A stretch of DNA of 44,740 bases from a virus (Duplodnaviria > Heunggongvirae > Uroviricota > Caudoviricetes). This document shows, one piece after another, positions 2,976-41,039 of this stretch; the stretch's first letter is position 1, and the number at the start of each line of letters is the position of its first letter. Position numbers and translations under genes: made by a program. The notes under the pieces were generated by a model that saw only the letters and a list, made by a program, of their open reading frames with translations, had not been told where the DNA came from and did not search any database. The stretch lies in the IMG/VR virus record IMGVR_UViG_2617271072_000006, positions 1 to 44,740 of that record, one strand, 5' to 3'.

Positions 2976-3404
2976 TTATTCAATATCTATTCCTGTAATA
3001 TCTTTTATCTTTTTCCTTGCAAAGCCTTTTGCTAGTGATTTTGAAACACTCATAAGTGTACTAATTCCCTCATCCTTAAAGTTTGTTTTTATAGCTTGCC
3101 AGACATCCTTTTGACGTAAGTCAGCAATAAAATCATGCCCTCTTGCTGTCAACCTCAGTGGTACTTCGATCCAACTATATCCAACACCTTCCCCTAACGC
3201 TTTGGACAATATATGACCGAACCCAGGTTTTCCATCAACCCTGACTATTAATTCGTAGTCACATAATAATCGCATATGGAAAATAAAATCTTGGTCATAT
3301 CTATTAAAGCCATTATCCTCTAGTTCACTAAGCATCGTGTCAGGGCCACGAGTTTTTTCGAATGCGATAAGTAGATCTTTTAGATATTGCTGGTCTAATT
3401 TCAT
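2976..3404 (-). CDS. Hypothetical protein, possibly DUF2513-like winged-helix protein
   Basis: 142-aa ORF with GGAGG Shine-Dalgarno 5 nt upstream of ATG 3404; family assignment is a weak recollection only. Confidence 0.5.
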   Translation of the reverse strand: MKLDQQYLKDLLIAFEKTRGPDTMLSELEDNGFNRYDQDFIFHMRLLCDYELIVRVDGKPGFGHILSKALGEGVGYSWIEVPLRLTARGHDFIADLRQKDVWQAIKTNFKDEGISTLMSVSKSLAKGFARKKIKDITGIDIE

Positions 3405-3432
3405 TGCCGCCTCCGTGACATGTCACAGAGAT

Positions 3433-3771
3433 TTATATCATTAATTTTGTTTCGTGCCAGCCTTTGGTCACCCAGCATTGTGAGTCACCATTACACGGGC
3501 ATGAATTAACAGGAACTCTCTCGCCGCACTTACCGCACCGTTTTCTGCTGATCGATTTTATACGCCAGCGCACACGTGCATCATCCTGGCGGCTCAGTAA
3601 CGCGATGTACTCACCAAACTCGCAAGGCGCACGCCTGAAGCGACGCGTGGCACAGTTACGCTCCAGCATTTCAATTTCCTGAGCATCAAGTACAAGCTCC
3701 AGCTTACGCATACCGGATGATGCTTGCTTGGCTCTCTGATCGGCTTTGTGCTCTGTTGCTGATTTAGCCAT
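3433..3771 (-). CDS. Hypothetical protein with C-terminal Cys-rich zinc-finger-like motif
   Basis: 112-aa ORF; CGKCGERVPVNSCPCNGDSQC cluster; AGGAAAAG upstream of ATG 3771; occupies the lambda ea8.5 position. Confidence 0.5.
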   Translation of the reverse strand: MAKSATEHKADQRAKQASSGMRKLELVLDAQEIEMLERNCATRRFRRAPCEFGEYIALLSRQDDARVRWRIKSISRKRCGKCGERVPVNSCPCNGDSQCWVTKGWHETKLMI

Positions 3772-3964
3772 TCTGCTTTTCCTGCATCAGGAGAAAGACA
3801 ATCATGGCGGCGCGGATACTTCCGGTATCTTTTTACGCGATATTCCCCTTCAATGGCACATACAAGAAGAGAGCCATCAACAGGAGTGATTGAGGAATCG
3901 ACAACCAGCAACGCTTAATTATCTATAGTGTCGTATTTGCTTCATAAAATATGGCGAATAACAC

Positions 3965-3996
3965 AAAGCCCGCAGCAGCTCATTGTGCGGGCTTTT
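3965..3996 (+). terminator. Stem-loop with T-rich tail (terminator candidate) in intergenic region
   Basis: AGCCCGCA ... TGCGGGCT stem, 11-nt loop, followed by TTTTCTTAT on the plus strand. Confidence 0.35.
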
Positions 3997-4064
3997 CTTA
4001 TACCTACTTCCTAGAGATAATTCTATGGAGGCATTAAATCAATACTGTCATTGGTAATATCATA

Positions 4065-4678
4065 TTATCTAAAAGTCTTTCCACTTTTAACATCTAGGTA
4101 TATTCTGTTCGACAACGTCATTCCTCCGCAATATGTGAAATAGATGTTTTCACCCTTATTGCTTGATGCCATCCACCCTCCGATTTCCTTAAAATCGCTT
4201 TCCGTGCAGACCCCTTCATTTATTAACTTCCTAGCTGCCGAAGAAAACTCTTTTTTGTATATACGGTAGTCATCAGATCCTTTGATTAAAGTATCATCTC
4301 CGCTCGCATTTTCAGCAGGATCTGATGGCCTTTCACTGCTAAGATCACTAAGTTTAACCCATTCTGAAAACTTGCCATTAACGATTCCATTTTTTCTTGT
4401 GCAGGATTTATTACCTTCTTTAATATATTCGCTTTCCCCTCCAACACATGAGGCTGAATATGGCTCAGTTATACGAACCCATTCACCTTTTTTTCTAGAA
4501 AATCTACGCCTTCCCTGAAAAATAGTTTCCCAGCCACTCCACATTTACTTGAAGGGCAGGTATGTCTTTCCGTTCGATCAACAACAACCCATAGTTTTGA
4601 TTCATTTTTTGCCATTGCCGATGGTATTTGAGATGAGACAATTAACGTAAGCCCTAAAATTAGTATTGATTTTTTCAT
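4065..4678 (-). CDS. Secreted protein with Sec signal peptide and possible SH3b-like region; frameshifted as assembled
   Basis: ORFs 4469-4678 (signal peptide MKKSILILGLTLIVSSQIPSAMA) and 4065-4544 join into one ~205-aa protein if the T7 run at 4488-4494 were T8. Confidence 0.5.
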
Positions 4679-4976
4679 TGTAATTTCCTTTTACTTTTTA
4701 CAAAGCGTTTAATCATGGCTGATTATCTCTAAGTGTAGTAACAGCCTTGTGCGAAACATGTTACCAAATCGCCATTTCAGTGTATCCGCAGTTAGGCTGC
4801 CACTTCAAGGATTCCTAATTACATGGTACGTAAGCGTAAAATCCCGTTGGTTGGCGGGTAATAACTCTGATCAAATCTCCCTTGTCTTTTGCTCTTACGT
4901 ATGCAGCTCTTGTGTATTCAACCCAGGCCTCCAGTTCAGCAATACGCTTACTTCCATCCGAGATAACACCTTCTAC

Positions 4977-5447: not shown

Positions 5448-5838
5448 CTTCCATTAATCCCTGAATTGTTGGTTAATACGCTTGGGGGTAAATGCGAGCA
5501 ATAAAAAAGGAGCCTGTAGCTCCCTGATAATTTTGCTTTTCATGTTCATCGTTCCTTAAAGACGCCGTTTAACATGCCGATTGCCAGGCTTAAATGAGTC
5601 GGTGTGAATCCCATCAGCGTTACCGTTTCGCGGTGCTTCTTCAGTACGCTACGGCAAATGTCATCGACGTTTTTATCCGGAAACTGCTGTCTGGCTTTTT
5701 TGATTTCAGAATTAGCCTGACGGGCAATGCTGCGAAGGGCGTTTTTCTTGCTGAGGTGTCATTGAACAAGCCCCATGTCGGCAAGCATAAGCACACAGAA
5801 TATGAAGCCCGCTGCCAGAAAAATGCATTCAGTGGTTG

Positions 5839-6030
5839 TCATACCTGGTCTCTCTCATCTGCTTCTGCTTTCGCCACCATCATTTCCAGCTTTTGTGAAA
5901 GGGATGCGGCTAACGTATGAAATTCTTCGTCTGTTTCTACTGGTATTGGCACAAACCTGACTCCAATTTGAGCGAGGCTATGTGCCATCTCGATACACGT
6001 TCTTAACTCAACAGGAGATGCTTTGTGCAT
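5839..6030 (-). CDS. Hypothetical protein, lambda orf63-like
   Basis: 63-aa [26 protein letters not shown]... in the position and overlap pattern of lambda orf63 upstream of exo. Confidence 0.75.
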   Translation of the reverse strand: MHKASPVELRTCIEMAHSLAQIGVRFVPIPVETDEEFHTLAASLSQKLEMMVAKAEADERDQV

Positions 6031-6191
6031 ACAGCCCCCCGTTTATTATTTATCTCCTCAGCCAGCCGCTGTGCTTTCAGGGGATTTCTGATAACAGAAA
6101 GGCCGGGAAATACCCAGCCTCGCTTTGTAACGGAGTAGACGAAAGTGATCGCACCTACCCGGATATTATCGTGAGGATGCTTCATCGCCAT
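6003..6191 (-). CDS. Hypothetical protein, lambda orf60a-like
   Basis: 62-aa [29 protein letters not shown]..., overlapping exo start as in lambda. Confidence 0.75.
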
Positions 6192-6862
6192 TGCTCCCCA
6201 AATACAAAACCAATTTCAGCCAGTGCCTCGTCCATTTTTTCGATGAACTCCGGCACCATCTCGTCAAAACTCGCCATGTACTTTTCATCCCGCTCAACCA
6301 CGACATAATGCAGGCCTTCACGCTTCATACGCGGGTCATAGTTGGCAAAGTACCAGGCATCTTTTCGCGTCACCCACATGCTGTACTGCACCTGGGCCAT
6401 GTAAGCCGACTTTATGGCCTCGAAACCACCGAGCCGGAACTTCATGAAATCCCGGGAGGTAAACGGGCATTTCAGCTCAAGGCCATTGCCGTCACTGCAT
6501 AAACCATCGGGAGAGCAGGCGGTGCGCATACTTTCGTCGCGATAGATGATCGGGGATTCAGTAACATTCACGCCGGAAGTGAATTCAAACAGAGTTCTGG
6601 CGTCGTTCTCGTACTGTTTTCCCCATGCCAGCGCCTTAGCATTAACTTCCGGAGCCACACCGGTGCAAACCTCAGCCAGCAGGGTGTGGAAGTAGGACAT
6701 TTTCATGTCAGGCCACTTTTTTCCGGAGCGGGGTTTTGCTATCACATTGTGAACTTCTGAAGCGGTGATGACGCCGAGCCGTAATTTGTGCCACGCATCA
6801 TCCCCCTGTTCGACAGCTCTCACGTCGATTCCGGTACGCTGCAGGATAATGTCCGGTGTCAT
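6182..6862 (-). CDS. exo: Exonuclease (Red alpha)
   Basis: 226-aa ORF matching lambda Exo as recalled ([37 protein letters not shown]...). Confidence 0.97.
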
Positions 6863-7644
6863 GCAGCCACCTTCTGCTCAGTGGCTTTCTGTTTCAGGAA
6901 TCCAAGAGCTTTCACTGCTTCGGCCTGTGTCAGTTCTGACGATGCGCGAATGTCGCGGCGAAATATCTGGGAACAGAGCGGCAATAAGTCGTCATCCCAT
7001 GTTTTATCCAGGGCAATCAGCAGAGTGTTAATCTCCTGCATGGTTTCATCGTTAACCGGAGTGATGTCGCGTTCCGGCTGACGTTCTGCAGTGTATGCGG
7101 TATTTTCGACAATGCGCTCGGCTTCATCCTTGTCATAGATACCAGCAAATCCGAAGGCGAGACGGGCACACTGAATCATGGCTTTATGCCGTAACATCCG
7201 TTTGGGATGCGACTGCCACGGCCCCGTGATTTCTCTGCCTTCGCGGGTTTTGAATGGTTCGCGTCGGCATTCATCCATCCACTCGGTAACGCAGATCGGA
7301 TGATTACGGTCCTTGCGGTAAATCCGGCATGTACAGGATTCATTGTCCTGCTCAAAGTCCATGCCATCAAACTGCTGGTTTTCATTGATGATGCGGGACC
7401 AGCCATCAACGCCCACCACCGGAACGATGCCGTTCTGCTTATCAGGGAAGGCGTAAATTTCTTTCGTCCACGGATTAAGGCCGTATTGGTTGGCGACGAT
7501 CAGCAATGCGATGAACTGCGCATCGCTGGCATCGCCTTTAAATGCTGTCTGGCGAAGAGTGGTGATCAGTTCCTGTGGGTCGACAGAATCCATGCCGACA
7601 CGTTCAGCCAGCTTCCCAGCCAGCGTTGCGAGTGCTGTACTCAT
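6859..7644 (-). CDS. bet: Single-strand annealing protein Bet (Red beta)
   Basis: 261-aa ORF matching lambda Bet as recalled ([37 protein letters not shown]...). Confidence 0.97.
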
Positions 7645-8816: not shown

Positions 8817-10419
8817 TTAATTTATCTTTTCAACATTTCCATGAATCAACAAGTCGTAGGCAAGAAATAGTTTCCTATACTGGGTTTTTAAATTGTCAAC
8901 GTCGCATGCCTTGAATTGAACAAACGCTTCTTTTTTAACATAATCTTCAATCTCCTCTTTGGGGATATTTTTTATGTTCTTAATGACTATAGACAATTCT
9001 TTGTACTTTTTGAACTTTGCATCCTTTATATCTTTGATGTTGGTGTAAATTTTATTTGCATTGATTTTATCTAAGGTGATTTTATTGAGCAAGTCGTCTA
9101 GTTTTCCGTGGCGTTCAATGCGTTGATTTAGTTTTAACACATATTTAGCTGGCAAACTTAACTCTTTCAAATTACATGAGGTTATAGTTTTTGAAAATGG
9201 AAGTTGTAATGAGTTTACTGAACCTAATATGAAATCTATGGCTAATTTATTAGATATTTCATTTTTATTAAATAAGTAGTCTTCAAGATAATTTATTTCT
9301 TTAACTTGTGTGAATACATACTTTTTATCGCCTAGAGCAACAACTAAATTTTTTCCTTGTTTAACACTTTCTTCAAGTCTGTCTAAGTCAGAAGGTGAAA
9401 CCAATAGAGTATCTAAGTGCCCTTTTTCACCCTCATTAATGATAAGTGTTTTAATGGCTCTTTGATACCTTAAAACATCATAAGGTGAGAGCCCTTCATC
9501 AACAGCACTGATCTCATCATAGATCTGTTTATAGTTATCTGTTTTAACAGATGTATATGTAATTTGTAGCTGTTGATCGGTAATCTGTTTTGGTACTACT
9601 TCCTGTTCATTCTCTTTATATTCAATCAAAATTATTCTTTCAGCTGATTTTCGACCATCTTCTCTAGGTAGTTGTGAGGAAAAATCAGAAAGAAGTTTCT
9701 TTACATTCCTGTCAGTTAAAGAATATCCAAGAAAAACTATTGGATTTTTAATCATGTTAGATAGTATCTTGGCACTAATGAGTATAGATTTGTTGTCATA
9801 TTTTTCGTAATCATCTTTATTTATGATTATTGAGTGTGGATCCTTTATATCACCATGTATTTTGTATAACTCACTCCAGCCAATAGTATCTTCGAAAAAA
9901 CCATTATTTCCAATATAGAGTTTTGGAGTTATATTTTGCTCTTGAAGTAAATTTTCTATGAAAGCATCATAATTTGTAGTGATGATTATCTTGGCCTTTT
10001 TTATTAATGTTTTAAATGATGCTAATTCATCAAGATTTACATCCTTTCTGATTGTGTTATTAGAAAATCTTTGGCATATGGCGTATTTAAATGGTGAAAT
10101 ATCTTCACTAAAAACCCTCTTGGCATCTAGTCCATTTAATTTTAATTTGCCAGTCCTAAACAATAGATTGTAATCATTTTCAATTTTACTTGCTGCCTCT
10201 GTATAAATCTTATGATCGATATCATTATCACTGTTATTTTTATGTGATTCTTTTATTGTTAAAAGATAACTATAGAAATCATTTGTGGGATTTGTTATTT
10301 TCCAATACTCGTTTAATAGCTCTTCCCACGTTGGGTAGTTCTCTAAATATATTTTTGAAATGCCTGAGCCAATAAAGACTATTGGGTAATTTTTGAATTC
10401 AAAATTTTTTTTTTGACAT
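8817..10419 (-). CDS. SIR2-like (SIR2_2/ThsA-type NADase domain) protein with uncharacterised C-terminal region; N-terminus frameshifted as assembled
   Basis: ORF 8817-10163 carries IIITTNYD, YKIHG and VFLGYSLTD motifs; the same frame upstream encodes the FIGSGIS glycine loop but has no start codon; ATG at 10419 with RBS is out of frame by one base across a T10 run (10405-10414). Confidence 0.7.
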
Positions 10420-12217: not shown

Positions 12218-13147
12218 ATGGCAAACACTGCTGAGATATTCAATTTTCCAGTGCCGGATGAGGCACAAAAGGAGCCGCGCGTGGCAGATCTCGATGATGG
12301 TTATACGCGCATTGCAAATGAGTTGCTGGAAGCTGTGATGCTGGCCGGATTAACACAGCACCAGCTTCTGGTCTTCCTGGCTGTCATGCGCAAAACATAT
12401 GGCTTTAATAAAAAACTGGATTGGGTGAGCAACGAGCAACTGTCCGAATTGACCGGGATATTGCCGCACAAGTGTTCTGCTGCAAAAAGTGTTCTGGTAA
12501 AGCGTGGGATTTTGATTCAGAGCGGGCGGAATATCGGTATTAATAATGTGGTCAGTGAATGGGCAACATTACCCGAATCAGGTAAGAAAAATAAAGTTTA
12601 CCTGAAAGAGGTAAATTTACCTGAATCAGGTAAGAAAAGTTTACCCAAATCAGGTAAAGGCGTTTACCCGAATCAGGTAAACACAAAAGACAAACTAACA
12701 AAAGACAATATAAAACCTTTTTCGTCCGAGAATTCTGGCGAATCCTCTGACCAACCAGAAAACGATCTTCCTGTGGTGAAACCAGATGCTGCAATTCAGA
12801 GCGGCAGCAAATGGGGGACAGCAGAAGACCTGACCGCCGCAGAGTGGATGTTTGACATGGTGAAGACCATCGCGCCCTCAGCCAGAAAACCGAATTTTGC
12901 AGGGTGGGCTAACGATATCCGCCTGATGCGTGAACGTGATGGACGTAACCACCGCGACATGTGCGTGCTGTTCCGCTGGGCATGCCAGGACAACTTCTGG
13001 TCCGGTAACGTGCTGAGTCCGGCCAAACTCCGCGACAAGTGGACCCAGCTCGAAATCAACCGAAACAAGCAACAGGCTGGCGTGACAGCCGGCAAACCAA
13101 AACTCGACCTGACGAACACTGACTGGATTTACGGGGTGGATTTATGA
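12218..13147 (+). CDS. O: Replication initiator O-like protein (lambda-type C-terminus, divergent N-terminal iteron-binding domain)
   Basis: Start ATG 12218 preceded by AGGAA; N-terminus parallels lambda O (VADLDDGY...LRKTYG), ori iterons embedded in the coding sequence, stop overlaps the P start. Confidence 0.85.
   Translation: MANTAEIFNFPVPDEAQKEPRVADLDDGYTRIANELLEAVMLAGLTQHQLLVFLAVMRKTYGFNKKLDWVSNEQLSELTGILPHKCSAAKSVLVKRGILIQSGRNIGINNVVSEWATLPESGKKNKVYLKEVNLPESGKKSLPKSGKGVYPNQVNTKDKLTKDNIKPFSSENSGESSDQPENDLPVVKPDAAIQSGSKWGTAEDLTAAEWMFDMVKTIAPSARKPNFAGWANDIRLMRERDGRNHRDMCVLFRWACQDNFWSGNVLSPAKLRDKWTQLEINRNKQQAGVTAGKPKLDLTNTDWIYGVDL
12569..12680 (+). repeat. ori iterons: five 17-bp direct repeats TTACCYRAATCAGGTAA (one degenerate) followed by an A-rich tract, inside the O gene
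   Basis: Repeats at 12569, 12598 (variant), 12617, 12641, 12664, then A-rich 12681-12720; same architecture as ori-lambda. Confidence 0.8.
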
Positions 13148-13845
13148 AAAACATCGCCGCACAGATGGTTAACTTTGACCGTGAGCAGATGCGCCGGATC
13201 GCCAACAATATGCCGGAACAGTACGACGAAAAGCCGCAGGTACAGCAGGTAGCGCAGATCATCAATGGTGTGTTCAGCCAGTTACTGGCAACTTTCCCTG
13301 CGAGCCTGGCTAACCGGGATCAGAACGAACTGAACGAAATCCGCCGCCAGTGGGTTCTGGCTTTCCGGGAAAACGGGATCACCACAATGGAACAGGTTAA
13401 CGCAGGAATGCGCGTAGCCCGTCGGCAGAATCGACCATTCCTGCCATCACCCGGGCAGTTTGTTGCCTGGTGCCGGGAAGAAACATCCGTTACCGCTGGG
13501 CTGCCAAACGCCAGCGAGCTGGTTGATATGGTTTACGAGTATTGCCGGAAGCGTGGCCTGTATCCGGACGCAGAGTCTTATCCATGGAAATCAAACGCGC
13601 ACTACTGGTTGGTTACCAACCTGTACCAGAACATGCGGGCCAATGCGCTGACTGACGCGGAATTACGGCGTAAAGCTGCCGATGAGCTGACCTGTATGAC
13701 CGCGCGAATTAACCGTGGTGAGGCGATACCTGAACCAGTAAAACAACTTCCTGTCATGGGCGGTAGACCTCTAAATCGTGCACAGGCTCTGGCGAAGATC
13801 GCAGAAATCAAAGCTAAGTTCGGACTGAAAGGAGCAAGTGTATAA
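13144..13845 (+). CDS. P: Replication protein P (DnaB helicase loader)
   Basis: 233-aa ORF matching lambda P over its length as recalled (MKNIAAQMVNFDREQMRRIANNMPEQYDEKPQVQQVAQIINGVF...). Confidence 0.95.
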   Translation: MKNIAAQMVNFDREQMRRIANNMPEQYDEKPQVQQVAQIINGVFSQLLATFPASLANRDQNELNEIRRQWVLAFRENGITTMEQVNAGMRVARRQNRPFLPSPGQFVAWCREETSVTAGLPNASELVDMVYEYCRKRGLYPDAESYPWKSNAHYWLVTNLYQNMRANALTDAELRRKAADELTCMTARINRGEAIPEPVKQLPVMGGRPLNRAQALAKIAEIKAKFGLKGASV

Positions 13846-15071: not shown

Positions 15072-15682
15072 ATGAGCTATAGACTATACCTGTTTCACAA
15101 CACAGTTTCTTTCAGGAAAACCACCGAGAAATGGGGTGGTCTTTCCAACATGGCCAAAGGATATCCGCTCTTCGTTAATGGTATACCCATTCAATCGAGT
15201 GAAATTCTTTACCAAGCATGCCGATATCCAGACTATCCAGATATCCAAAGGGTTATTATTACCCAAGCCAACCCTTACGAAGCTAAACAAACCGCCAGAA
15301 CCTTCGAGGCCAAAACCCGTACTGGTTGGGAAAAAATCGAGTTTCGGTAATGAAATGGTGTGTCTGCGTTAAGCTTTGCCAGAACTGGGAATCGTTCTTC
15401 GCGCTATTGGATAGCACAGGAGATCATGACATTGTTGAGCACTCAGAGAAGGACCAATTTTGGGGGGCTAGTAAGGACTCCGAAGGTAACTTTTATGGCA
15501 TGAACGTGTTAGGTCGTATCCTTATGGATGCGAGAGATATTGCAAGAAAGAAGGGGCCTGCAGGGTTTGCTACGATACCGCCGCTACCCTTGGATAGGTT
15601 TCTTCTGCTCGGGGAGCAAATACGTGATGTCACTTTCTCTCCACCACCGATGGATTCAGGGCAAAGCTTATCGCTTTTTTAA
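15072..15682 (+). CDS. NADAR (YbiA-like N-glycosidase) domain protein; frameshifted as assembled
   Basis: ORFs 15066-15350 and 15326-15682 together align to YbiA as recalled (LSNMAKGYP...SSEILYQACRY, then WEK..VMKW...IVEHSEKDQFWGA...GMNVLGRILMDAR); frames join if the A6 run at 15331-15336 were A7. Confidence 0.75.
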
Positions 15683-16153
15683 TGTGGCTGTTGTTCCTCT
15701 CTCGGTCGTGACAGTTCTGCAACCCCGCTTTGGCGGATTTTTTATAAATTATGCAACTTATTGACTTGATACCGATATTTCAGACTTTAACATAGCAGCC
15801 AAAATCTAGGACGAAGGCGACAAAGTAAACGTTGAATTGGCTGCCATCGGCGTAGCGTTCAAAGAGTGGATGAATATGTCGGTTATAGCGGAAGCGGTGA
15901 TGCGTGAGCAGACATCGCTCTGCCCAAGGCATCCGCCCCTCGACATCTTAAGCAGGAAGGTGAAAAATGATAAGTGCAGAAGGACTGCAGCGGTTACTTA
16001 ATTTATCGGAGCCTCCATCTGATGAACTGATTGATGTTTATCTTCAATTCAGCATGATTTTTCCTAGGGTCGAACAAAGTTTTTTTTGGTGGCTTTGCTA
16101 AGGGGGAAGACAGTTTAAATTATGCTCGAACGTTACTTGACGCCGGGATAAAG

Positions 16154-16450
16154 GTGCCCAACGAACTTTTTCACGATTTTAAGCAGAGATACATTTTGAA
16201 CGGGGATGCGCAGGAAAGACTTGACGCCCTCTGTTTCGGTCGAGAGAGAGATAAGCGGGGAATAGTTAATGGGCTTCAAAATGACGCAGCAACAGATCTA
16301 AACACCATGTCTACAGTATTAAAGATAGTTATAAGGATAAGAAATAACCTTTTCCACGGAAATAAAGACGCTTATCTTTTTGTTGATTCTCAAGAGCAAG
16401 CGCAACTATTGAGATGGTGCGTGAGATTTCTCCAAGGATTATTAAATTAA
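16154..16450 (+). CDS. Hypothetical protein (possible R-x4-H HEPN-like motif); may extend upstream to ~15966
   Basis: 98-aa GTG-start ORF; a 44-codon ATG ORF from ~15966 fuses in frame if the T8 run near 16076-16083 were T7, giving ~161 aa; contains RNNLFH. Confidence 0.35.
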   Translation: MPNELFHDFKQRYILNGDAQERLDALCFGRERDKRGIVNGLQNDAATDLNTMSTVLKIVIRIRNNLFHGNKDAYLFVDSQEQAQLLRWCVRFLQGLLN

Positions 16451-16639
16451 TCTGCCTTTGATTTTCACTAATCAACTCGCCATAATCATGTCATCGGAGC
16501 CTGAACAACTCCGGTGACTTCTGCGCTAAACGGGGACGTTTATGCGCACATACAATCCAAACTCTCTTCTCCCTTCACAGATGCAGAAATGCACCTGCGA
16601 TTTTTTGCATCCAGCGCCTGACCTCTGCGGAGGTGAAGC

Positions 16640-17095
16640 GTGAACCTACCACAAGATGGCATCAAACTGCATCGTGGTAACTTCACCGCTATCGGTCAGC
16701 AGATCCAGCCTTATCTGGAGGACGGCAAATGCTTTCGCATGGTGCTTAAACCGTGGCGCGAGAGACGCAGTCTTTCCCAGAATGCACTTAGCCACATGTG
16801 GTACAGCGAAATCAGTGAATACCTCATAAGCAGGGGGAAATCGTTCGCTACTGCAGCATGGGTAAAAGATGCTCTCAAACACACATACCTCGGTTATGAA
16901 ACCAAAGACCTGGTTGATGTCGTAACCGGTGAAATCACCACTATTCAGTCGTTACGTCATACCTCCAATCTTGATACCGGAGAGATGTATGTCTTCCTGT
17001 GTAAGGTTGAAGCCTGGGCGATGAATATTGGCTGCCACCTGACTATTCCGCAGAGCTGCGAGTTCCAGCTGCTGCGCGACAAGCAGGAGGCGTAA
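16640..17095 (+). CDS. ninB: NinB-family recombination protein
   Basis: 151-aa ORF with NinB-like motif ([20 protein letters not shown]); first gene of the nin block after the cargo island. Confidence 0.7.
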
Positions 17096-21762: not shown

Positions 21763-22257
21763 ATGGCTGGAACGGCGGGGCGTTCCGGGCGTCGCCCCAA
21801 GCCAACGGCGCGCAAGGCGCTGGCCGGAAACCCCGGCAAGCGAGCCCTGAACAAAGATGAACCTGTTTTTACGCCCATCAAAGGTGTTGAGCCACCGGAG
21901 TGGTTCGCTGAAGAAGATCTCCCTCTCGCCACGATCATGTGGCAACTGACAACCAAAGAACTCTGCGGTCAGGGCCTGCTGTGCGTGACTGACTTGGCGG
22001 TACTTGAGCGGTGGTGCGTGGCCTACGAGTTCTGGCGACGTGCCGTGAAAAATATTGCCAGACAGGGCAACACCATCACCGGTGCAATGGGTGGCATGGT
22101 CAAAAATCCGGAGCTGACCGCCAAGAAAGAACAGGAGTCCGAGATGAGCAGCACGGGGGCAATGCTCGGACTCGACCCCAGCAGCCGCCAGCGTCTGATT
22201 GGCCTGGCGGGGCAGAAGAAAGCCACTAACCCGTTTCTGAAAATCATCGAATCATGA
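21763..22257 (+). CDS. Terminase small subunit
   Basis: ORF 21754-22257 (likely ATG 21763 after AGGAG), positioned between HNH and the large terminase subunit with ATGA overlap. Confidence 0.8.
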
Positions 22258-23986
22258 GCCGGAAATCTTACCCCAACGTAAATGCTGCCAATCAGTATGC
22301 CCGTGATGTCGTGCGCGGAAAGATTGTGGCCTGCCAGTTTGTGATTCAGGCCTGCCAGCGCCATCTTGATGACCTGATGGTGGAAAAAGTAAGTCGTTTC
22401 GTTACCGCTTCGACAAGGACCTGGCTGAACGGGCCGCGAAATTTATTCAGCTGTTGCCACACACCAAGGGGGAGTGGGCATTCAAGAGGATGCCCATCAC
22501 GCTGGAACCGTGGCAGCTCTTTGTGATCTGCTGTGCGTTTGGCTGGGTCAATAAAGGCTCCCGGCTGCGCCGCTTCAGGGAGGTGTATACCGAAATCCCC
22601 CGTAAGAACGGCAAATCGGCAATCTCTGCCGGTGTTGCCCTGTATTGTTTTGCCTGTGATAACGAGTTTGGCGCGGAAGTGTATTCCGGTGCCACGACAG
22701 AGAAACAGGCGTGGGAAGTCTTTCGCCCGGCGCGACTGATGTGTAAACGCACACCCATGCTGACGGAAGCGTTCGGGATTGAGGTTAACGCCTCAAACAT
22801 GAACCGTCCGGAGGATGGCGCGCGGTTTGAACCGCTGATCGGTAACCCCGGTGATGGTTCATCACCCCACTGTGCCGTGGTGGATGAATATCACGAGCAC
22901 GCCACCGATGCGCTTTATACCACGATGCTTACCGGGATGGGCGCGCGACGTCAGCCACTGATGTGGGCCATCACCACCGCCGGGTACAACATTGAGGGGC
23001 CGTGCTACGACAAGCGGCGGGAAGTTATCGAGATGCTCAACGGTTCGGTACCCAACGATGAACTGTTCGGGATCATCTATACCGTTGACGAAGGCGATGA
23101 CTGGACCGACCCGCAGGTGCTGGAAAAAGCTAACCCGAATATTGGCGTGTCGGTTTATCGCGAATTTTTGTTAAGTCAGCAGCAGCGTGCGAAAAATAAC
23201 GCCCGTCTGGCAAACGTCTTTAAAACAAAACACCTCAATATCTGGGTGTCGGCGCGTTCGGCGTATTTCAACCTGGTGAGCTGGCAGAGCTGCGAGGATA
23301 AATCACTGACCCTTGAGCAGTTCGAGGGGCAACCGTGCATTCTGGCCTTTGACCTGGCGCGTAAGCTGGATATGAACAGCATGGCGCGACTTTATACCCG
23401 CGAGATTGACGGTAAAACGCATTACTACAGTGTGGCTCCGCGCTTCTGGGTACCGTATGACACGGTGTACAGCGTCGAGAAAAATGAAGATCGCCGGACA
23501 GCCGAACGCTTTCAGAAATGGGTGGAAATGGGCGTTCTGACCGTTACCGATGGTGCGGAGGTGGATTATCGCTACATCCTCGAGGAGGCCAAAGCGGCGA
23601 ACAAAATCAGCCCGGTCAGTGAGTCACCCATCGACCCCTTCGGGGCGACCGGGTTGTCACATGACCTTGCTGATGAAGACCTGAATCCCGTCACTATCAT
23701 TCAGAACTACACCAACATGTCCGACCCGATGAAAGAGCTGGAAGCGGCAATTGAATCGGGGCGCTTTCATCATGATGGCAATCCCATCATGACCTGGTGT
23801 ATCGGCAATGTGGTCGGCAAAACCATTCCGGGTAACGATGATGTGGTGAAACCCGTCAAAGAGCAGGCGGAAAACAAAATTGACGGTGCAGTTGCGCTGA
23901 TTATGGCGGTTGGCAGAGCCATGCTGTATGAGAAAGAAGACACGCTGTCTGACCACATTGAGTCCTATGGGATCCGCTCGCTTTAA
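22254..23986 (+). CDS. Terminase large subunit; frameshifted as assembled
   Basis: N-terminal ORF 22254-22526 and main ORF 22454-23986 join in frame if one base is restored near 22397-22401; reading of the junction ([19 protein letters not shown]) is my reconstruction. Confidence 0.85.
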
Positions 23987-23997
23987 CTGAGGTAATT

Positions 23998-24180
23998 ATG
24001 ATCATGCTGATTCTCGCGCCTCTGGTGGGCGTGCTGGGGGCGCTTTTGCTGGCGTATGGTGCCTGGCTGATTTATCCCCCGGCGGGGTTTGTTGTTGCCG
24101 GGGCGTTGTGCCTGTTCTGGTCGTGGCTGGTGGCGCGATATCTCGACCGTACACAGTCGTCTGTCGGCGGAGGTAAATAG
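23998..24180 (+). CDS. Small hydrophobic membrane protein
   Basis: 60-aa ORF, two predicted transmembrane helices, between terminase and portal. Confidence 0.5.
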
Positions 24181-25421
24181 TGTTCTTTTCGGGATTATTT
24201 CAACGAAAAAGTGACGCACCGGTGACCACGCCAGCAGAGCTGGCGGATGCTATCGGGTTGTCCTACGACACCTATACCGGAAAGCAGATCAGCAGCCAGC
24301 GGGCCATGCGACTGACGGCGGTTTTTTCCTGCGTCAGGGTGCTGGCAGAGTCGGTCGGGATGTTGCCCTGCAATCTGTATCACCTGAACGGCAGCCTGAA
24401 ACAGAGAGCCACCGGCGAGCGTCTGCATAAGCTGATCTCCACGCATCCCAATGGCTATATGACGCCGCAGGAGTTCTGGGAGCTGGTGGTCACCTGTCTG
24501 TGCCTGCGGGGAAACTTTTACGCCTACAAAGTGAAAGCATTTGGCGAAGTGGCTGAACTGCTGCCCGTCGATCCCGGCTGTGTGGTACCGAAGCTTAACA
24601 GTAGCTGGGAGCCGGTCTATCAGGTCACATTCCCGGACGGCTCCACGGATGTACTGAGCCAGGAAGATATCTGGCATGTGCGCACGCTGACGCTGGACGG
24701 TCTGGTGGGGCTGAATCCCATCGCCTATGCCCGCGAGGCAATATCGCTGGCAGCTGCGACCGAAGAGCACGGGGCCAGACTGTTCAGCAATGGTGCGGTG
24801 ACGTCCGGTGTGTTGCGTACAGAGCAGACGCTGTCGGATCAGGCTTATGAGCGCCTGAAGAAAGATTTTGAGGAGCGTCACACCGGGCTTGGCAATGCTC
24901 ACCGCCCGATGATCCTTGAGATGGGGCTGGACTGGAAGTCGATGGCGCTGAACGCCGAGGACAGCCAGTTCCTGGAAACCCGCAAGTTTCAGCTTGAAGA
25001 AATCTGTCGTCTGTTCCGGGTGCCGTTGCACATGGTGCAGAACACCGATCGCGCCACCTTCAACAATATCGAAGAGCTGGGGCTGGGATTTATCAACTAT
25101 TCACTGGTGCCGTATCTGACCCGCATCGAACAGCGGATCAACACCGGACTGGTACGAAAAAGTAAGCAGGGCGTTTATTACGCCAAATTTAACGCCGGGG
25201 CGTTACTGCGCGGGGATATGAAGTCCCGTTTTGAAGCCTACGCCACCGGGATCAACTGGGGAATTTACTCTCCCAATGACTGCCGCGACCTGGAAGATAT
25301 GAATCCGCGTCCCGGTGGTGATGTCTATCTCACACCGATGAACATGACCACGAAACCCTCCGATGGCAGTAAAGCCGGTAAGCAGAAGGATAACGCCAAT
25401 GCAGACGAAACAACGTCTTGA
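24180..25421 (+). CDS. Portal protein (HK97 family)
   Basis: 413-aa ORF, GTG start with GGAGG RBS; size and position (after terminase, before prohead protease) typical of HK97-type portals. Confidence 0.8.
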   Translation: MFFSGLFQRKSDAPVTTPAELADAIGLSYDTYTGKQISSQRAMRLTAVFSCVRVLAESVGMLPCNLYHLNGSLKQRATGERLHKLISTHPNGYMTPQEFWELVVTCLCLRGNFYAYKVKAFGEVAELLPVDPGCVVPKLNSSWEPVYQVTFPDGSTDVLSQEDIWHVRTLTLDGLVGLNPIAYAREAISLAAATEEHGARLFSNGAVTSGVLRTEQTLSDQAYERLKKDFEERHTGLGNAHRPMILEMGLDWKSMALNAEDSQFLETRKFQLEEICRLFRVPLHMVQNTDRATFNNIEELGLGFINYSLVPYLTRIEQRINTGLVRKSKQGVYYAKFNAGALLRGDMKSRFEAYATGINWGIYSPNDCRDLEDMNPRPGGDVYLTPMNMTTKPSDGSKAGKQKDNANADETTS

Positions 25422-26050
25422 TGTACCGCTGAGTCTGAAATCTGTCAGTGACTCCGGTGAGTTTGAAGGGTATGGCTCCGTCTTTGGTGTAAAGGACAGC
25501 CACGATGATGTGGTGATGTCCGGGGCATTTGCTGCTTCCCTGCGGGCGTGGAGTGACAGAAAAGCGTTACCTGCGCTGCTCTGGCAGCACCGCATGGATG
25601 AACCCATCGGTGTTTACACCGAAATGAAGGAAGACGATGTCGGGCTTTACGTCAGGGGACGGTTGCTTATTGATGATGATCCCCTCGCAAAAACGCGCAC
25701 ATGCACACATGAAGGCCGGTTCGTTAACCGGCCTTTCTATTGGGTACGTCCTGAAAGACTGGGAATACGACCGGAGCAAAGAAGCCTTTCTGCTGAAAGA
25801 AATCGACCTCTGGGAAGTCAGCCTGGTGACGTTCCCGTCTAACGACGAGGCGCGGATCAGCGACGTCAAGAACGCACTGGCCCGCGGGGAAATCCCCGAA
25901 CAGAAAAAAATCGAAAGAGTCCTGCGTGATGTCGGACTCTCCCGTACCCAGGCCAAAGCATTCATGGCCGGGGGCTATGGCGCACTGTCCCTGCGCGACG
26001 CTGAGGATGTGGGCTCTGCACTGAATGCACTGAAAAATCTGAACTTCTAA
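25399..26050 (+). CDS. Prohead protease (HK97 family); frameshifted as assembled
   Basis: ORFs 25363-25842 and 25637-26050 are two frames of one protease; frames differ by one base around the C4/A5 runs at 25681-25693; start may be 25363 or ATG 25399. Confidence 0.75.
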
Positions 26051-26064
26051 TCAGGAGAAATACG

Positions 26065-27267
26065 ATGGCGGTTGATATTAAAGATGTCGAACAGGTCGCG
26101 CAGGAGCTGCAGCAGAAGTTTGACGACTTCAAAGCAAAGAACGACAAGCGCGTGGATGCGATTGAGCAGGAAAAAGGCAAGCTTGCCGGGCAGGTGGAAA
26201 CCCTGAACGGGAAACTCAGCGAGCTGGAAAATCTCAAAAGCGACCTTGAAAAAGAGCTGCTTGAGCTGAAACGTCCGGCAGGTGGAGCGCAAAATAAACT
26301 GGCCACCGAGCATAAAGAGGCGTTTGTGGGCTTCCTGCGTAAAGGCCGTGAAGACGGTCTGCGCGATCTGGAGCGTAAGGCATTGCAGGTGGGTACCGAT
26401 GAAGACGGTGCTACGCCGTGCCGGAAGAACTGGATCGCAACATTCTTAACCTGCTGAAAGATGAAGTGGTGATGCGTCAGGAACCACGGTGATCACCGTT
26501 GGCGGTTCCGACTACAAAAACTGGTGAATCTGGGCGGTACGGCTTCCGGATGGGTGGGGGAAACGGATACGCGATCCCAGACTGCCACCTCCAGACTGGA
26601 GCTGATTGAACCTCTCATGGGGGAAATCTACGGCAACCCGCAGGCTACCCAGAAAATGCTGGACGATGCCTTCTTCAACGTGGAGGCCTGGATCAACAGC
26701 GAGCTGGCAACCGAATTTGCCGAACAGGAAGAAATTGCCTTTACCTCAGGCAATGGCACCAAGAAGCCGAAAGGGTTCCTGGCGTATGAATCCACGGATG
26801 AAACCGACAAGGTCCGGGCGTTCGGCAAACTTCAGCATATTGTATCCGGCGAAGCGACCGCGGTGACCGCAGACGCCATTATCAAACTGATTTACACGCT
26901 GCGTAAGGCACACCGCACTGGCGCGAAGTTCATGATGAACAACAACAGCCTGTTTGCCATACGTCTGCTGAAAGACAGCGAGGGTAACTATCTGTGGCGT
27001 CCGGGGCTGGAGCTGGGGCAGCCGTCCTCTCTGGCGGGTTACGGTATCGCTGAAAACGAACAGATGCCGGATATCGCCGCTGATGCGAAAGCCATTGCAT
27101 TTGGTAACTTCAAACGGGGTTACACCATCGTTGACCGTATCGGCACCCGCATTCTGCGTGACCCGTACACCAATAAACCGTTTGTCGGTTTTTATACCAC
27201 CAAACGCACCGGCGGCATGCTGGTCGATTCGCAGGCCATCAAACTGCTGAAGATTGCAGTGGCGTAA
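26065..27267 (+). CDS. Major capsid protein (HK97 fold) with N-terminal coiled-coil delta domain; three frameshifts as assembled
   Basis: ORF 26065-26457 (coiled coil) and 26524-27267 (capsid body) are connected through three single-base deletions at ~26410, ~26482 and 26516-26520. Confidence 0.8.
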
Positions 27268-27315
27268 TCACTCAGGGGCGCGGAACCGCGCCCCTGTTCT
27301 GACGGGTGAAGAATC

Positions 27316-27516
27316 ATGATCCTGAAACAAGATCTGAAATGGTCACCGGACGGTATGCGTGTTGAGGTCATTCGGGCCGGTGAGTATGACGACGGGGCGC
27401 TTCCTGCCCGGGTGCAGGAGATTGCACTTCAGGCCGGGTTAGCAGAGCGCGGAACCAGTGCAAAAAGCAATAAAGCGACAAAAGAGAAAAAAGCCACGAC
27501 CAGTAAAGAGGGCTGA
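27316..27516 (+). CDS. Hypothetical head-module protein
   Basis: 66-aa ORF between capsid and connector genes. Confidence 0.4.
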   Translation: MILKQDLKWSPDGMRVEVIRAGEYDDGALPARVQEIALQAGLAERGTSAKSNKATKEKKATTSKEG

Positions 27517-27518
27517 GT

Positions 27519-27842
27519 ATGCTTCTGACAATGGAAGAGATTAAAGCCCAACTCCGGCTGGATGAGGATTTCGATGCTGATGACCGCCATCTGCAACTGC
27601 TGGCCTGTGCGGCACAAAAGCGGACAGAAACGTATCTGAACCGGAAGCTCTATGCACCGGATGAAACCATTCCGGACAGCGATCCGGACGGGCTGCACCT
27701 GCCGGATGATATTCGTCTGGGGATGCTGATGCTTATCAGCCATTTTTACGAAAACCGCTCGTCGGTTACGGAAGTGGAGAAACTCGACATGCCGCAGAGT
27801 TTTGGCTGGCTTGTCGGCCCGTACAGGTACTTTCCGCAATGA
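27519..27842 (+). CDS. Head-tail connector (gp6-like)
   Basis: 107-aa ORF in the conserved position after the capsid gene. Confidence 0.65.
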   Translation: MLLTMEEIKAQLRLDEDFDADDRHLQLLACAAQKRTETYLNRKLYAPDETIPDSDPDGLHLPDDIRLGMLMLISHFYENRSSVTEVEKLDMPQSFGWLVGPYRYFPQ

Positions 27843-28249
27843 AAATTCGTCAGGCGCAGACCAGCGCAACCTACATTCTGCCGGACCCCGGTGAACTGAA
27901 TAAACGCGTCCTGATCCGCCAGCGGGTGGATATGCCCGCGGATAACTTTGGCGTGGAGCCTCAATACCCGGTTACGTTCCGGACATGGGCGAAGGTTATC
28001 CAGACCAGTGCCACCACCTGGCAGGAAACCGCGCAGACCGGGGACGCCATCACCCATTACATCACCATTCGCTACCGCCGGGGGATCACTGCTGATTATG
28101 AGGTGGTCTGTGATGACCGTGTGTACCGGGTGAAACGTCAGCGTGATCTGAACGGGGCGCGGCGCTTTCTGCTGCTGGAGTGTACGGAACTGGGTGCCGA
28201 AGAACAAATGGGAGGACGCAGTGGATCAGACAGCATTTTTACACGTTGA
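27839..28249 (+). CDS. Head closure / head-tail adaptor protein
   Basis: 136-aa ORF, overlapping neighbours, conserved order in HK97-type head modules. Confidence 0.6.
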   Translation: MKIRQAQTSATYILPDPGELNKRVLIRQRVDMPADNFGVEPQYPVTFRTWAKVIQTSATTWQETAQTGDAITHYITIRYRRGITADYEVVCDDRVYRVKRQRDLNGARRFLLLECTELGAEEQMGGRSGSDSIFTR

Positions 28250-28745
28250 TTTCAAACAACCGGAGGAGATGGAGTTTAACCGTGCCAGGCTCCGAAGGGC
28301 ATTTGTTCAAATCGGGCGTGTCTATATGCGTGATGCCCGGCGGCTGGTGATGCGACGTGGTCGGTCTGCTCCAGGTGAAAACCCCGGCTATCAGACCGGA
28401 CGACTTGCGCGTTCTATAGGTTATTACGTCCCCCGTAAAAGCTCCCGTCGTTCTGGCCTGATGGTCAGGATTTCCCCTAACCAGAAAAACGGGCAGGGTA
28501 ACCGGCGTTTTCCTGAAGGTTCTGCGTATTATCCGGCGTTTCTGTATTACGGTGTGCGTCATGCCGCATACGGGATGAGCAAAAAGGATAAGCGCCAGAA
28601 AAAGCAGCATTCATCCCGCTGGCGGCTGGCACCACGTAATAACTTTATGGCTGATGTCATCGACCAGCGTCGTTACTGGACACAAAAGTTACTGTCCCGT
28701 GAGTTACAGCGGTCATTACGTCCTGTAAGAAGGAAAAAAACATGA
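28194..28745 (+). CDS. HK97 gp10-like neck protein
   Basis: 183-aa Arg-rich ORF following the head closure gene. Confidence 0.55.
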   Translation: MPKNKWEDAVDQTAFLHVDFKQPEEMEFNRARLRRAFVQIGRVYMRDARRLVMRRGRSAPGENPGYQTGRLARSIGYYVPRKSSRRSGLMVRISPNQKNGQGNRRFPEGSAYYPAFLYYGVRHAAYGMSKKDKRQKKQHSSRWRLAPRNNFMADVIDQRRYWTQKLLSRELQRSLRPVRRKKT

Positions 28746-29302
28746 AACTGACTCCTGTTATTGCTGCGCTGCGTGCCCGCTGTCTGTATTTTGAAAACCG
28801 GGTGGCAGGCGCGGCACAGTTCAAAAATCTGCCGGAGGTCGGAAAGCTGAGACTCCCGGCGGCATATGTTGTACCGGGTGATGATTCTCCGGGAGAAAAC
28901 AAAAGCCAGACCGACTACTGGCAGGAGCTGAAAGAGGGCTTCTCCGTGGTTGTCATACTGAGTAACGGGCGTGATGAGCGCGGTCAGTTTGCCTCGTATG
29001 ATGTGGTGGACGATGTCCGGCAAATGCTCTTTAAGGCCCTGCTGGGCTGGAACCTGGAAGCGTGCGGTAATCCGATTACCTATGACGGTGGCACGCTGCT
29101 GGATCTGAATCGTCATGAGCTGATTTATCAGTTCGATTTTTCGGTCATCAGCGAGCTGACCGAAGACGATACCCGCCAGCAGGATGATCTGAACAGTCTG
29201 GATGAACTGCGAACGCTGGCGATTGATGTTGATTATCTCGATCCCGGTAACGGGCCTGACGGCGATATCGAACATCACACCGAAATAACCCTTCCTTCCT
29301 GA
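28742..29302 (+). CDS. Tail completion / terminator-like protein
   Basis: 186-aa ORF between neck genes and tail sheath. Confidence 0.5.
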   Translation: MKLTPVIAALRARCLYFENRVAGAAQFKNLPEVGKLRLPAAYVVPGDDSPGENKSQTDYWQELKEGFSVVVILSNGRDERGQFASYDVVDDVRQMLFKALLGWNLEACGNPITYDGGTLLDLNRHELIYQFDFSVISELTEDDTRQQDDLNSLDELRTLAIDVDYLDPGNGPDGDIEHHTEITLPS

Positions 29303-29464
29303 GAATCTTCATGTTTGTGAAACCTGTTAAAGGGCGGTCAGTTCCTGACCCTGCCCGCGGCGACCTTTTGCCCGCCGAGGGGCGAAATGTTGATGAGAAC
29401 AACTACTGGCTGCGCCGTGAAGCAGCGGGTGATATCCGGCGCGTGAATGAAAAGGTGAATACCG

Positions 29465-30960
29465 ATGACGATAAGCTTTAACTCCATTCCGTCGAATACG
29501 CTGGTTCCGATTTTTATGCGGAAATGGATAACTCGGCGGCGAATACTGCACAGGACAGCGGAGCATCGCTGCTGATTGGTCATGCCAATAACGGTGCAGA
29601 GATTGTTGCCAACAGTCTGGTGCTGATGCCATCGGCAGACTATGCACGCCAGATTTGTGGTGCGGGAAGTCAGTTGTCGCGTATGGTCGAGGCTTATCGC
29701 CAGACCGACCCGTTTGGTGAACTGTATGTGATTGCCGTTCCTGAATCCACGGGCGCGGCGGCAACAGTTACGCTGACGGTGACCGGAGCGGCAACCGAAA
29801 CCGGCACGGTGAATGTTTATGTGGGACGTACCCGCGTGCAGGCACCGGTGACCAACGGCGATAACGTCGCGACGATTGCCAGCAGTATCAAAGATGCCAT
29901 CAATGCCGTTCCGACCCTGCCGTTTACTGCCTCATCTTCGGCAGGCGTGATCACACTGACCGCGCGTCATAAGGGGCTTTGCGGGAATGAAATTCCTGTC
30001 AGCCTCAATTACTACGGCTTTGGTGGGGGCGAAGTGCTGCCAGCGGGCGTACAGATTGCCGTGGCGACGGGTACCGCTGGAACGGGCGCTCCTGTTCTCA
30101 CCGGCGCGGTGGCTGCAATGGCGGATGAGCCGTTTGATTATATCGGCCTGCCGTTCAACGACACGGCCTCCGTTAACACGCTGGTGACCGAGATGAACGA
30201 TACCAGCGGTCGCTGGAGCTATGCGCGTCAGCTGTATGGTCATGTGTATACGGCAAAGATCGGCACGCTGTCAGAACTGGTGACCGCAGGTGACCAGTTT
30301 AACCAGCAGCACATTACCCTGGAGGGATACGAAAAAGAGACCCCGACGCCTGCCGACGAGCTGGCGGCAAGCCGTACCGCCCGCGCAGCAGTGTTTATTC
30401 GCAACGATCCGGCACGTCCCACGCAGACCGGTGAGCTGGTGGGTATGCTGCCTGCGCCGAAGGGGAAACGGTTCACGATGACCGAACAACAGACCCTGCT
30501 GTCGCATGGCGTGGCAACGGCGTATGTCGAAAGCGGGGTGCTGCGCATTCAGCGTGATGTCACCACGTACAGGAAAAATGCTTACGGTGTTGCGGATAAC
30601 AGCTACCTCGACAGCGAGACGCTGCATACCAGCGCGTATGTGCTGCGCAAACTGAAATCCGTCATTACCAGTAAGTACGGGCGTCACAAGCTTGCCAGCG
30701 ACGGTACCCGCTTTGGTCCCGGTCAGGCGATTGTCACACCGGCGGTGATCAAAGGGGAACTGCTGACAACCTACCGTCAGCTTGAGCGTGCGGGGATCGT
30801 GGAAAACTACGAACTGTTTAAGCAGTACCTGGTTGTGGAGCGTGATGCCAGCGATCCGAACCGCCTGAACACGCTGTTCCCGCCTGACTATGTTAACCAG
30901 TTGCGTGTCTTTGCCGTGGTTAACCAGTTCCGTCTTCAGTATTCAGAGGAGTCTGCATAA
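29465..30960 (+). CDS. Contractile tail sheath protein (Mu gpL-like); N-terminus frameshifted as assembled
   Basis: ORF 29524-30960 (478 aa) extends to ATG 29465 (MTISFNSIPSNTLVPIFYAE-MDNSAAN) if the T5 run at 29511-29515 were T6; followed by a tube gene. Confidence 0.8.
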
Positions 30961-31316
30961 TGGCCCGTATCGGGGGAACCTGTTATTTCAAAATTGACGG
31001 TCAACAGCTATCGCTGACCGGCGGCATTGAGGTGCCCATGAACAGGACGGTCAATGATGACATCATCGGCCTGGACGGTTCAGTGGACCGCAAGGAAACT
31101 CACCGTGCGCCTTATGTCAAAGGGACTTTCAAGGTACCGAAGAATTTTCCGGTGAGCAAAATCACCTCGTCTGATGAGATGACCATCACTGCCGAGCTGG
31201 CGAACGGTCAGGTCTATGTATTGTCGTCTGCCTGGCTGCACGGTGAAGCGAACCATAATGCCGAAGAAGGCACGGTCGATATTGAATTTCACGGTGAAGA
31301 AGGGGATTACCAGTGA
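30960..31316 (+). CDS. Tail tube protein
   Basis: 118-aa ORF immediately after the sheath gene with ATGA overlap. Confidence 0.75.
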   Translation: MARIGGTCYFKIDGQQLSLTGGIEVPMNRTVNDDIIGLDGSVDRKETHRAPYVKGTFKVPKNFPVSKITSSDEMTITAELANGQVYVLSSAWLHGEANHNAEEGTVDIEFHGEEGDYQ

Positions 31317-31636
31317 TTGAGCTTGTACTTAAAAAACCGATCATCGCCCACAAAGAAACACTGCATGTGTTGGAAATACGTGAGCCTACGTATGACGAGA
31401 TTGAGGCGCTGGGGTTCCCTTTCTCTGTTTCGCCTGATGGTGGTATGAAAATGGACAGTCAGGTGGCGCTGAAATATATCCCGCTTCTGGCCGGGATCCC
31501 GCGCTCGTCTGCAGCGCAGATGACGAAGCTGGATATTTTCAAGGCAGGCATGATTGTAATGCGTTTTTTTACCGGCTTGGAGACGGAAGAGACCTCCGGA
31601 AGCGATTCTACAATGTCGCGTGGTTCTGGAAATTAA
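31313..31636 (+). CDS. Tail assembly chaperone
   Basis: 107-aa ORF between tube and tape-measure genes. Confidence 0.55.
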   Translation: MIELVLKKPIIAHKETLHVLEIREPTYDEIEALGFPFSVSPDGGMKMDSQVALKYIPLLAGIPRSSAAQMTKLDIFKAGMIVMRFFTGLETEETSGSDSTMSRGSGN

Positions 31637-31720
31637 ACCCCCTTGAACTTCGCCGGACGGCTATTTCTCACTTTGCTGATCTGGAGGCAGAGGCCGTCCG
31701 TATAAATGAGGAGATGAAGC

Positions 31721-33628: not shown

Positions 33629-33652
33629 CGCAGTCCTTTTTGAGGTCAGTCT

Positions 33653-38698: not shown

Positions 38699-38701
38699 TC
38701 C

Positions 38702-40450: not shown

Positions 40451-40451
40451 A

Positions 40452-41036: not shown

Positions 41037-41039
41037 GGA

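Follow-up and report, generated by a model that had tools for sequence, protein, structure and literature searches.

A gene split at a T run in a lambdoid prophage encodes a conserved, stand-alone HEPN-like protein and candidate anti-phage RNase

We analyzed a 44,740-nucleotide (nt) stretch of tailed-virus DNA (IMG/VR record IMGVR_UViG_2617271072_000006; the whole stretch is called the window below) and found that two short open reading frames (ORFs) at positions 15967-16450 are the halves of one conserved prophage gene under purifying selection, which encodes a protein of 160 amino acids (aa). The gene lies downstream of the replication genes, between ninB and a decaying gene related to DNA polymerase III theta and phage P1 Hot (theta/Hot-like, hereafter theta). 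We consider it probable that this is an accessory gene (moron) of a lambdoid prophage, independent of the neighboring anti-phage system DS-32 and interrupted in the window by a homopolymer error, and that its stand-alone, HEPN-like, all-alpha product is a latent anti-phage RNase.

Two short ORFs are the halves of one gene

The 44-codon ORF runs from an ATG at 15967 to a stop at 16099-16101, while the +1 frame stays open between 16058 and a stop at 16448-16450; the ORF list gives the latter as a GTG-initiated ORF at 16154-16450 (98 aa). The sole long homopolymer of the interval is a run of eight Ts (T8) at 16080-16087, 4 nt to the right of where the initial annotation had put it (16076-16083). 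Removing one T joins the two frames, as that annotation had proposed, although into a protein of 160 aa and not about 161. The sequence RIRNNLFHG that it had expected in the fused product is found at residues 123-131 (window 16334-16360).

Both halves match, at 100% identity, the protein WP_000622059.1 (Table 1), an intact 483-nt coding sequence in Escherichia coli A3024 that is annotated as a hypothetical protein. The fused frame aligns with phrog_27260, a family without assigned function, over its full length (residues 1-160 over profile positions 1-160 of 160, E = 1.2e-91). Homologues from Salmonella, Enterobacter and Klebsiella share 75-81% identity with the fused protein, every one of them is 160 aa long, and all keep the junction as FPRVEQ[SR]FFGGFA. 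Pairwise ratios of nonsynonymous to synonymous substitution rates (dN/dS) across the fused frame are 0.13-0.16. Because both halves are identical to an intact protein, the phrog_27260 match is full length, the junction is conserved and dN/dS is low, the agreement with a single gene is far beyond chance, and the two ORFs do join at the T run: one gene is interrupted there. By megablast, the segment is present in 54 of 5,426 complete E. coli genomes.

Origin of the frameshift

The T8 in place of T7 is most likely a one-base homopolymer error of assembly or sequencing. The tract is T7 in 16 of the 16 relatives in which it was read. A 76-nt probe centered on it was identical to none of the 54 E. 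coli genomes, the best match (98.7%) differing by one gap, and the exact T8 version had no match among 2.9 million IMG/VR contigs. Compared with isolate 602, which is 99.92% identical over 18.7 kb (22003-40747), the window has 5 substitutions and 10 single-base indels, almost all of the latter in runs of A, T or G; like differences from A3024 lie at 13887, 15330 and 16080. Split in the window are terL, the prohead protease, tail sheath, tape measure and cI-like repressor genes, the NADAR gene of DS-32 and the 160-aa gene, and the fragments of each are about 100% identical to an intact protein. We favor an error because a 2:1 ratio of indels to substitutions, confined to homopolymers, is the pattern of unpolished long reads and not of evolution. 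The interruption that the initial annotation saw at the T run is thus there, but a biological split is improbable, given that T8 is unique to the window and that homopolymer indels affect many essential phage genes.

Were the frameshift real, this strain would have lost the gene to a recent slippage that added one T, and the NADAR gene would have slipped similarly, through selection against costly or toxic defense genes or through prophage decay. Homopolymer slippage is a common route of inactivation; moreover, a separate nonsense mutation, K45* (AAG to TAG), is known in two loci (L032 and L033), the same gene of strain A35 has another indel (G6), and an insertion sequence (IS) element interrupts DS-32A in other strains (H37/H38). 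Even so, we find this unlikely. In addition to the indel excess against so close a relative and the uniqueness of T8 among the 54 genomes and all IMG/VR contigs, the terminase, protease, sheath and tape measure genes are also affected, which is the pattern of an uncorrected long-read assembly and not of targeted loss, and A35 itself carries many annotations marked "frameshifted". We give next to no credence to the T run as a programmed-frameshift or phase-variation site that toggles the gene: the homopolymer does lie within coding sequence, but it is an in-frame T7 in all relatives and encodes the conserved S/R-F-F-G-G, no T6 or T8 variants occur among the 54 genomes or in IMG/VR, and the Salmonella and Enterobacter tract is conserved no further than its codons demand.

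Two related observations concern the record and its relatives. The K45* loci (IMG/VR UViG_2548876865_000007 and 2778261394_000010; locus position ~4133) show a 44-aa and a 98-aa ORF with no frameshift. Relative to near-identical E. coli prophages, single-base indels in the window, mostly in homopolymers, lie at 22383, 25689, 26409-26515, 29510, 32852, 33061 and 33102, with further sites at 5742, 8474, 10405, 11079 and 13887.

A widespread and unannotated protein family

An exhaustive profile search (E < 1e-3) returned 170 representatives at 50% identity, nearly all of them stand-alone proteins of 155-200 aa. Searching a larger database with profiles yielded 623 clusters, drawn from Agrobacterium, Bradyrhizobium, Cupriavidus, Achromobacter, Alcaligenes, Rhodoferax, Desulfobulbus and metagenomes. 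None of these contains a Pfam domain, and those with a name are all "hypothetical", bar one evident misannotation (acetylglutamate kinase). We compared three independent alignments, A2 (66 sequences), A4 (74) and A5 (122), whose members are about 20-25% identical to the query. R123, R125, N127, H130 and K133 are invariant in all three, E36, R74 and G131 in at least two, and F28, Y75, N126 and L88 vary little or not at all. The signature of the family reads R-x-R-N-N-x-x-H-G-x-K.

Pfam, NCBIfam and PADLOC scans assigned the fused protein to no family, phrog_27260 being its only significant match, and a Pfam scan of 140 members and three profile consensus sequences likewise returned no family. 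With tblastn there was no match among 50,697 phage records, and the only plasmid matches were four rhizobial conjugative plasmids; scanning genome contigs for the family pattern gave one locus only. A literature search by accession, by motif string and by theta plus HEPN found nothing on this family. We conclude that it is a widespread, unannotated and so far undescribed family of stand-alone HEPN-like proteins.

Resemblance to the HEPN superfamily

HEPN proteins are recognized by an R-x4-6-H motif with a polar residue (N, D or H) directly after the R, and often have a conserved acidic residue upstream, typically in E-x3-[KR] (Anantharaman et al. 2013, PMC3710099). The 160-aa protein has such a motif, R125-N126-N127-L-F-H130. 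It also has the invariant E36, but the query carries no K or R at +4, and the assignment of this residue to helix 1 or 2 is uncertain.

AlphaFold2 (AF2) with the 122-sequence alignment predicted an all-alpha protein with a mean predicted local distance difference test (pLDDT) score of 88.3 and a predicted template modeling (pTM) score of 0.87 (five models, pLDDT 85.6-88.3). The predicted helices span residues 19-39 and 46-58, an insert (65-77, 81-88 and 93-104), 110-129 and, after a loop of low pLDDT, 141-159. A model from a shallow alignment has the same topology, and in both models the motif ends the helix at 110-129/130. The order of helices is that of HEPN domains, as read from secondary-structure order only. 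Several features are thus shared with the superfamily, notably with RiboL-PSP-HEPN and the AbiD/AbiF-like abortive-infection (Abi) proteins: the third core helix ends in R-N-x-x-x-H, helices 2 and 3 are separated by an insert, the fold is an all-alpha bundle, and the genes are associated with mobile elements and defense islands; E36 may supply the conserved acidic residue upstream. The weak Pfam matches of family members are mostly to HEPN families, namely HEPN_RiboL-PSP (two), DUF3644 (two and one consensus), DUF4209 and SWT1; DUF3644 and DUF4209 are HEPN families (PMC3710099).

Weighing against membership, we obtained no significant match to HEPN in Pfam, NCBIfam, PADLOC, PDB sequence searches or Foldseek. 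The PDB sequence searches with profiles A1 and A2 returned chance matches only, and Foldseek against PDB and BFVD gave none below E = 0.2 with the shallow-alignment AF2 model as query. The family also differs from HEPN_RiboL-PSP, to which only 2 of 140 members have sub-threshold matches (E = 1e-4), and from the superfamily at large in having no fusion or operon with L-PSP, ParB, MNT or restriction-modification genes. Its extended signature, R-x-R-N-N-x-x-H-G-x-K, and the invariant R74-Y75 are peculiar to it. The initial annotation had tentatively taken the R-x4-H as HEPN-type and proposed profile and structure searches with the fused protein. The motif proved to be part of an invariant family signature, in an HEPN-like sequence and a predicted all-alpha fold that places it as HEPN proteins do, but neither kind of search produced a significant HEPN match. 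Judging from the motif and the predicted fold, we think it likely that the 160-aa protein belongs to the HEPN superfamily.

The lack of a significant match to any HEPN profile or structure would also suit a helical protein that is not a nuclease, such as a phage-beneficial early protein or an anti-defense factor, with the conserved R and H kept for binding and not for catalysis. Transcription during lytic growth covers the early-right (nin) region in which the gene is found, and HEPN-like folds without catalytic function are known. With the signature and the predicted motif placement on the other side, we regard this alternative as improbable.

A possible role in abortive infection

We propose, by analogy with known systems, that the intact 160-aa protein may be a latent RNase that triggers abortive infection. 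As in other HEPN proteins whose R-x4-H is intact, oligomerization would join two such motifs into a metal-independent RNase site. In the lysogen the protein would stay dormant, as do HepS and Tha, both solo HEPN proteins encoded by prophages; a component of an infecting phage would be the trigger, and cleavage of tRNA or mRNA and abortive infection would follow. RNase activity, oligomerization, the role in defense and the existence of a trigger are what we infer.

The closest known system is HepS (STM14_3211), the "HEPN Solo" abortive-infection protein of the Salmonella prophage Gifsy-1 (Nature 2026, PMC13043305). HepS is made constitutively and is tetrameric; the tail-tip protein J of infecting siphoviruses activates it to cleave tRNA anticodon loops (PMC13043305). 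Both proteins are small and stand-alone, have a canonical R-x4-H and no conserved partner gene, and are encoded in the accessory region downstream of lambdoid prophage replication genes. The motif is R100-H105 in HepS, as against R125-H130 of 160 aa here. Structures of HepS have been deposited; profiles A1 and A2 match no chain at E <= 10 in the PDB copy searched, and the likeness to HepS lies in motif, size and gene context. The LT2 Gifsy-1 record does not encode HepS. Tha, a tail-activated HEPN system of Staphylococcus aureus prophages (PMC11087260), is likewise a prophage-encoded HEPN RNase defense that must stay silent towards its own phage. It differs in host and architecture and serves as a mechanistic precedent only.

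Genomic neighbors of family members

Among 45 non-redundant viral loci, the immediate neighbors include no conserved partner; the family member is a stand-alone gene in a prophage accessory region. These neighbors include DUF6441 (seven loci), theta (four), DUF6896 (three), NinB, Q, GmrSD_N, methylases, and ParE-like and Hok proteins. No NTP_transf_2/MNT gene stands beside the family member in the 45 viral loci or in enterobacterial prophages. The family differs from HEPN-MNT (HepT/MntA) and RnlA-RnlB systems in having no nucleotidyltransferase or RnlB-like neighbor, and the theta-like gene upstream is usually a pseudogene. Chromosomal copies outside the enterobacteria adjoin defense-type genes: (i) NERD-UvrD and a giant SACS/NOV_C protein; (ii) SMODS and SLATT, on an integrative element; (iii) ApeA-HEPN, PLD and an NTase; (iv) E2, ThiF and JAB; and (v) SLFN_AlbA_2 with MT-A70. 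In Agrobacterium (L006-L008), the member is flanked by conserved proteins of 531 and 514 aa without a Pfam match (3380-4975, 5734-7278), downstream of the NERD-UvrD helicase and the SACS/NOV_C protein (1,610 aa); this locus may be an uncharacterized multi-gene defense island.

The theta pseudogene of the window ends in a TGA (15968-15970) that overlaps the start codon of the 160-aa gene as ATGA. Salmonella prophages (L015/L016) have an intact theta of 82 aa with the same 4-nt overlap. We surveyed 57 family loci (56 from IMG/VR and one from an Enterobacter genome); in 27 of them the HEPN-like gene directly adjoins a theta homologue, also in subfamilies with no more than 24-41% identity to the query, and in four theta lies downstream. 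Stop and start codons of the two genes often overlap or abut, with intergenic distances from -14 to +15 nt. Of 31 such loci, about 23 have a broken or partial theta, whereas only two have an HEPN-like gene that is not intact. From these comparisons, theta is in our reading probably a backbone gene in decay and the marker of a slot for variable cargo.

The recurrence of this adjacency across divergent subfamilies, in some with reversed order, could instead point to a functional pair, and a small gene upstream of a larger one with an ATGA overlap is the typical arrangement of toxin-antitoxin (TA) loci. The two genes would then form a type II TA-like module, with theta as antitoxin or regulator, or a replication-linked sensor. 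We find such a pair quite improbable. A type II antitoxin is expected to be intact wherever its toxin is, yet most theta copies are broken where the HEPN-like gene is intact; in one locus (L004) an unrelated gene of 67 aa takes the place after the theta remnant; family members outside the enterobacteria have no theta and varied neighbors; and slot synteny is the simpler explanation. Theta as the antitoxin in our principal model was rejected because it is usually a pseudogene next to an intact HEPN-like gene. It is a long shot that the adjacency reflects a solo HEPN RNase that is regulated by or guards the theta-epsilon interface (Pol III proofreading), or that is neutralized by theta-like proteins, host HolE included once the phage copy has decayed. 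If true, the theta link would couple RNA cleavage to disturbance of the replisome by an invading phage.

Two independent variable cargo slots lie between replication gene P (13144-13845) and ninB (16640). The first, between P and theta, is occupied by DS-32 here and by a DUF4145 (HEPN-family) protein in IAI1 and FDAARGOS_1251; the second, after theta, carries the 160-aa gene here and the 67-aa gene in CB6837. Behind the 160-aa gene of Enterobacter mori comes a NACHT protein. The 33-codon backbone ORF downstream was considered as a partner and discarded, because loci that lack the 160-aa gene have it too. Rfam and repeat scans of 15600-16750 found nothing, and a promoter and terminator scan found sites not above chance expectation.

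Independence from DS-32

DS-32 is an experimentally validated two-gene system of a PRTase and a NADAR protein (DefensePredictor preprint 10.1101/2025.01.08.631726). It is the immediate upstream neighbor of the 160-aa gene in the window and also prophage cargo, but it is a separate system. The initial annotation had counted the interrupted gene as a third cargo gene of the NADAR locus, perhaps its effector. This does not hold: the 160-aa gene is independent of DS-32, and their co-occurrence is incidental. The two are adjacent and on the same strand here and in three E. coli genomes, but DS-32 adjoins the gene in only those 3 of the 54 genomes that carry it, and at least 37 of the genomes listed have DS-32 followed by a different gene in that slot. 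CB6837 (L004) has DS-32 and then the 67-aa gene, with no 160-aa gene, whereas in IAI1, NC101 and FDAARGOS_1251 the 160-aa gene stands behind the DUF4145 protein (L003, L013). As DS-32 was validated with two genes, and between the two units lie the theta pseudogene and a hairpin with a T run after it, a third component is very improbable.

The NADAR gene is itself split in the window, at an A6 tract that is A7 in relatives with an intact gene. The intact NADAR protein matches DS32_2 with 260 bits (cut-off 240). Its split is probably the same type of assembly error, and DS-32 should therefore not be scored as a pseudogene from this window.

Other features of the window

Table 1. Coordinates of the 160-aa gene and neighboring features in the window
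Feature	Position	Strand	Evidence
N-terminal part, codons 1-40 of the 160-aa HEPN-like gene	15967..16086	+	tblastn with intact WP_000622059.1: residues 1-40, 100% identity
C-terminal part, codons 39/41-160 and stop 16448-16450, +1 frame	16082..16450	+	tblastn: residues 39-160, 100% identical at 16082-16447
T8 homopolymer; the extra T gives a +1 frameshift	16080..16087	+	T7 in all relatives examined
Codons of R123-I-R125-N-N-L-F-H130-G-N-K133; HEPN-type R-x4-H (R125...H130), polar N126 after R	16334..16366	+	Alignments, AF2
Pseudogene, DNA polymerase III theta / phage P1 Hot-like; residues 1-45 and 66-82 left	15777..15970	+	tblastn with intact Salmonella prophage theta; annotated theta pseudogene in relatives
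33-codon backbone ORF WP_072114080.1; overlaps the ninB/ybcN start at 16640	16542..16643	+	Annotations in relatives
DS-32A, PRTase-CE phosphoribosyltransferase-like anti-phage protein	14050..15069	+	NCBIfam NF053875 equivalog (DS32_1), 305 bits against a cut-off of 250; Pfam PF24390
DS-32B, NADAR-family anti-phage protein, split at the A6 run 15331-15336	15072..15682	+	Halves 100% identical to intact WP_032217954.1

Two further features lie elsewhere in the window. A gene for a 533-aa SIR2-family protein (8820-10412, minus strand) adjoins the cI-like repressor and has a T-run indel at 10405; it is likely another defense cargo of the prophage. A 4,011-bp inverted repeat (34996-39006 and 40732-44740, 97.8% identity) carries baseplate and tail-fiber genes and flanks the region in which relatives have the pinE invertase. 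A second tail module, a neighboring prophage or an assembly duplication could account for it.

Implications

The split of the 160-aa gene very probably stems from the assembly and would carry no weight for biology, and the frameshifts of the window, that of NADAR included, should not be taken as pseudogenes. What the two ORFs lead to is a family of at least 600 clusters of proteins of about 165 aa, spread across Proteobacteria and temperate phages and absent from Pfam, NCBIfam and PADLOC. It occupies prophage accessory slots and neighborhoods that resemble defense islands, and after HepS and Tha it offers a plausible further single-protein HEPN abortive-infection element and an inexpensive candidate for testing.
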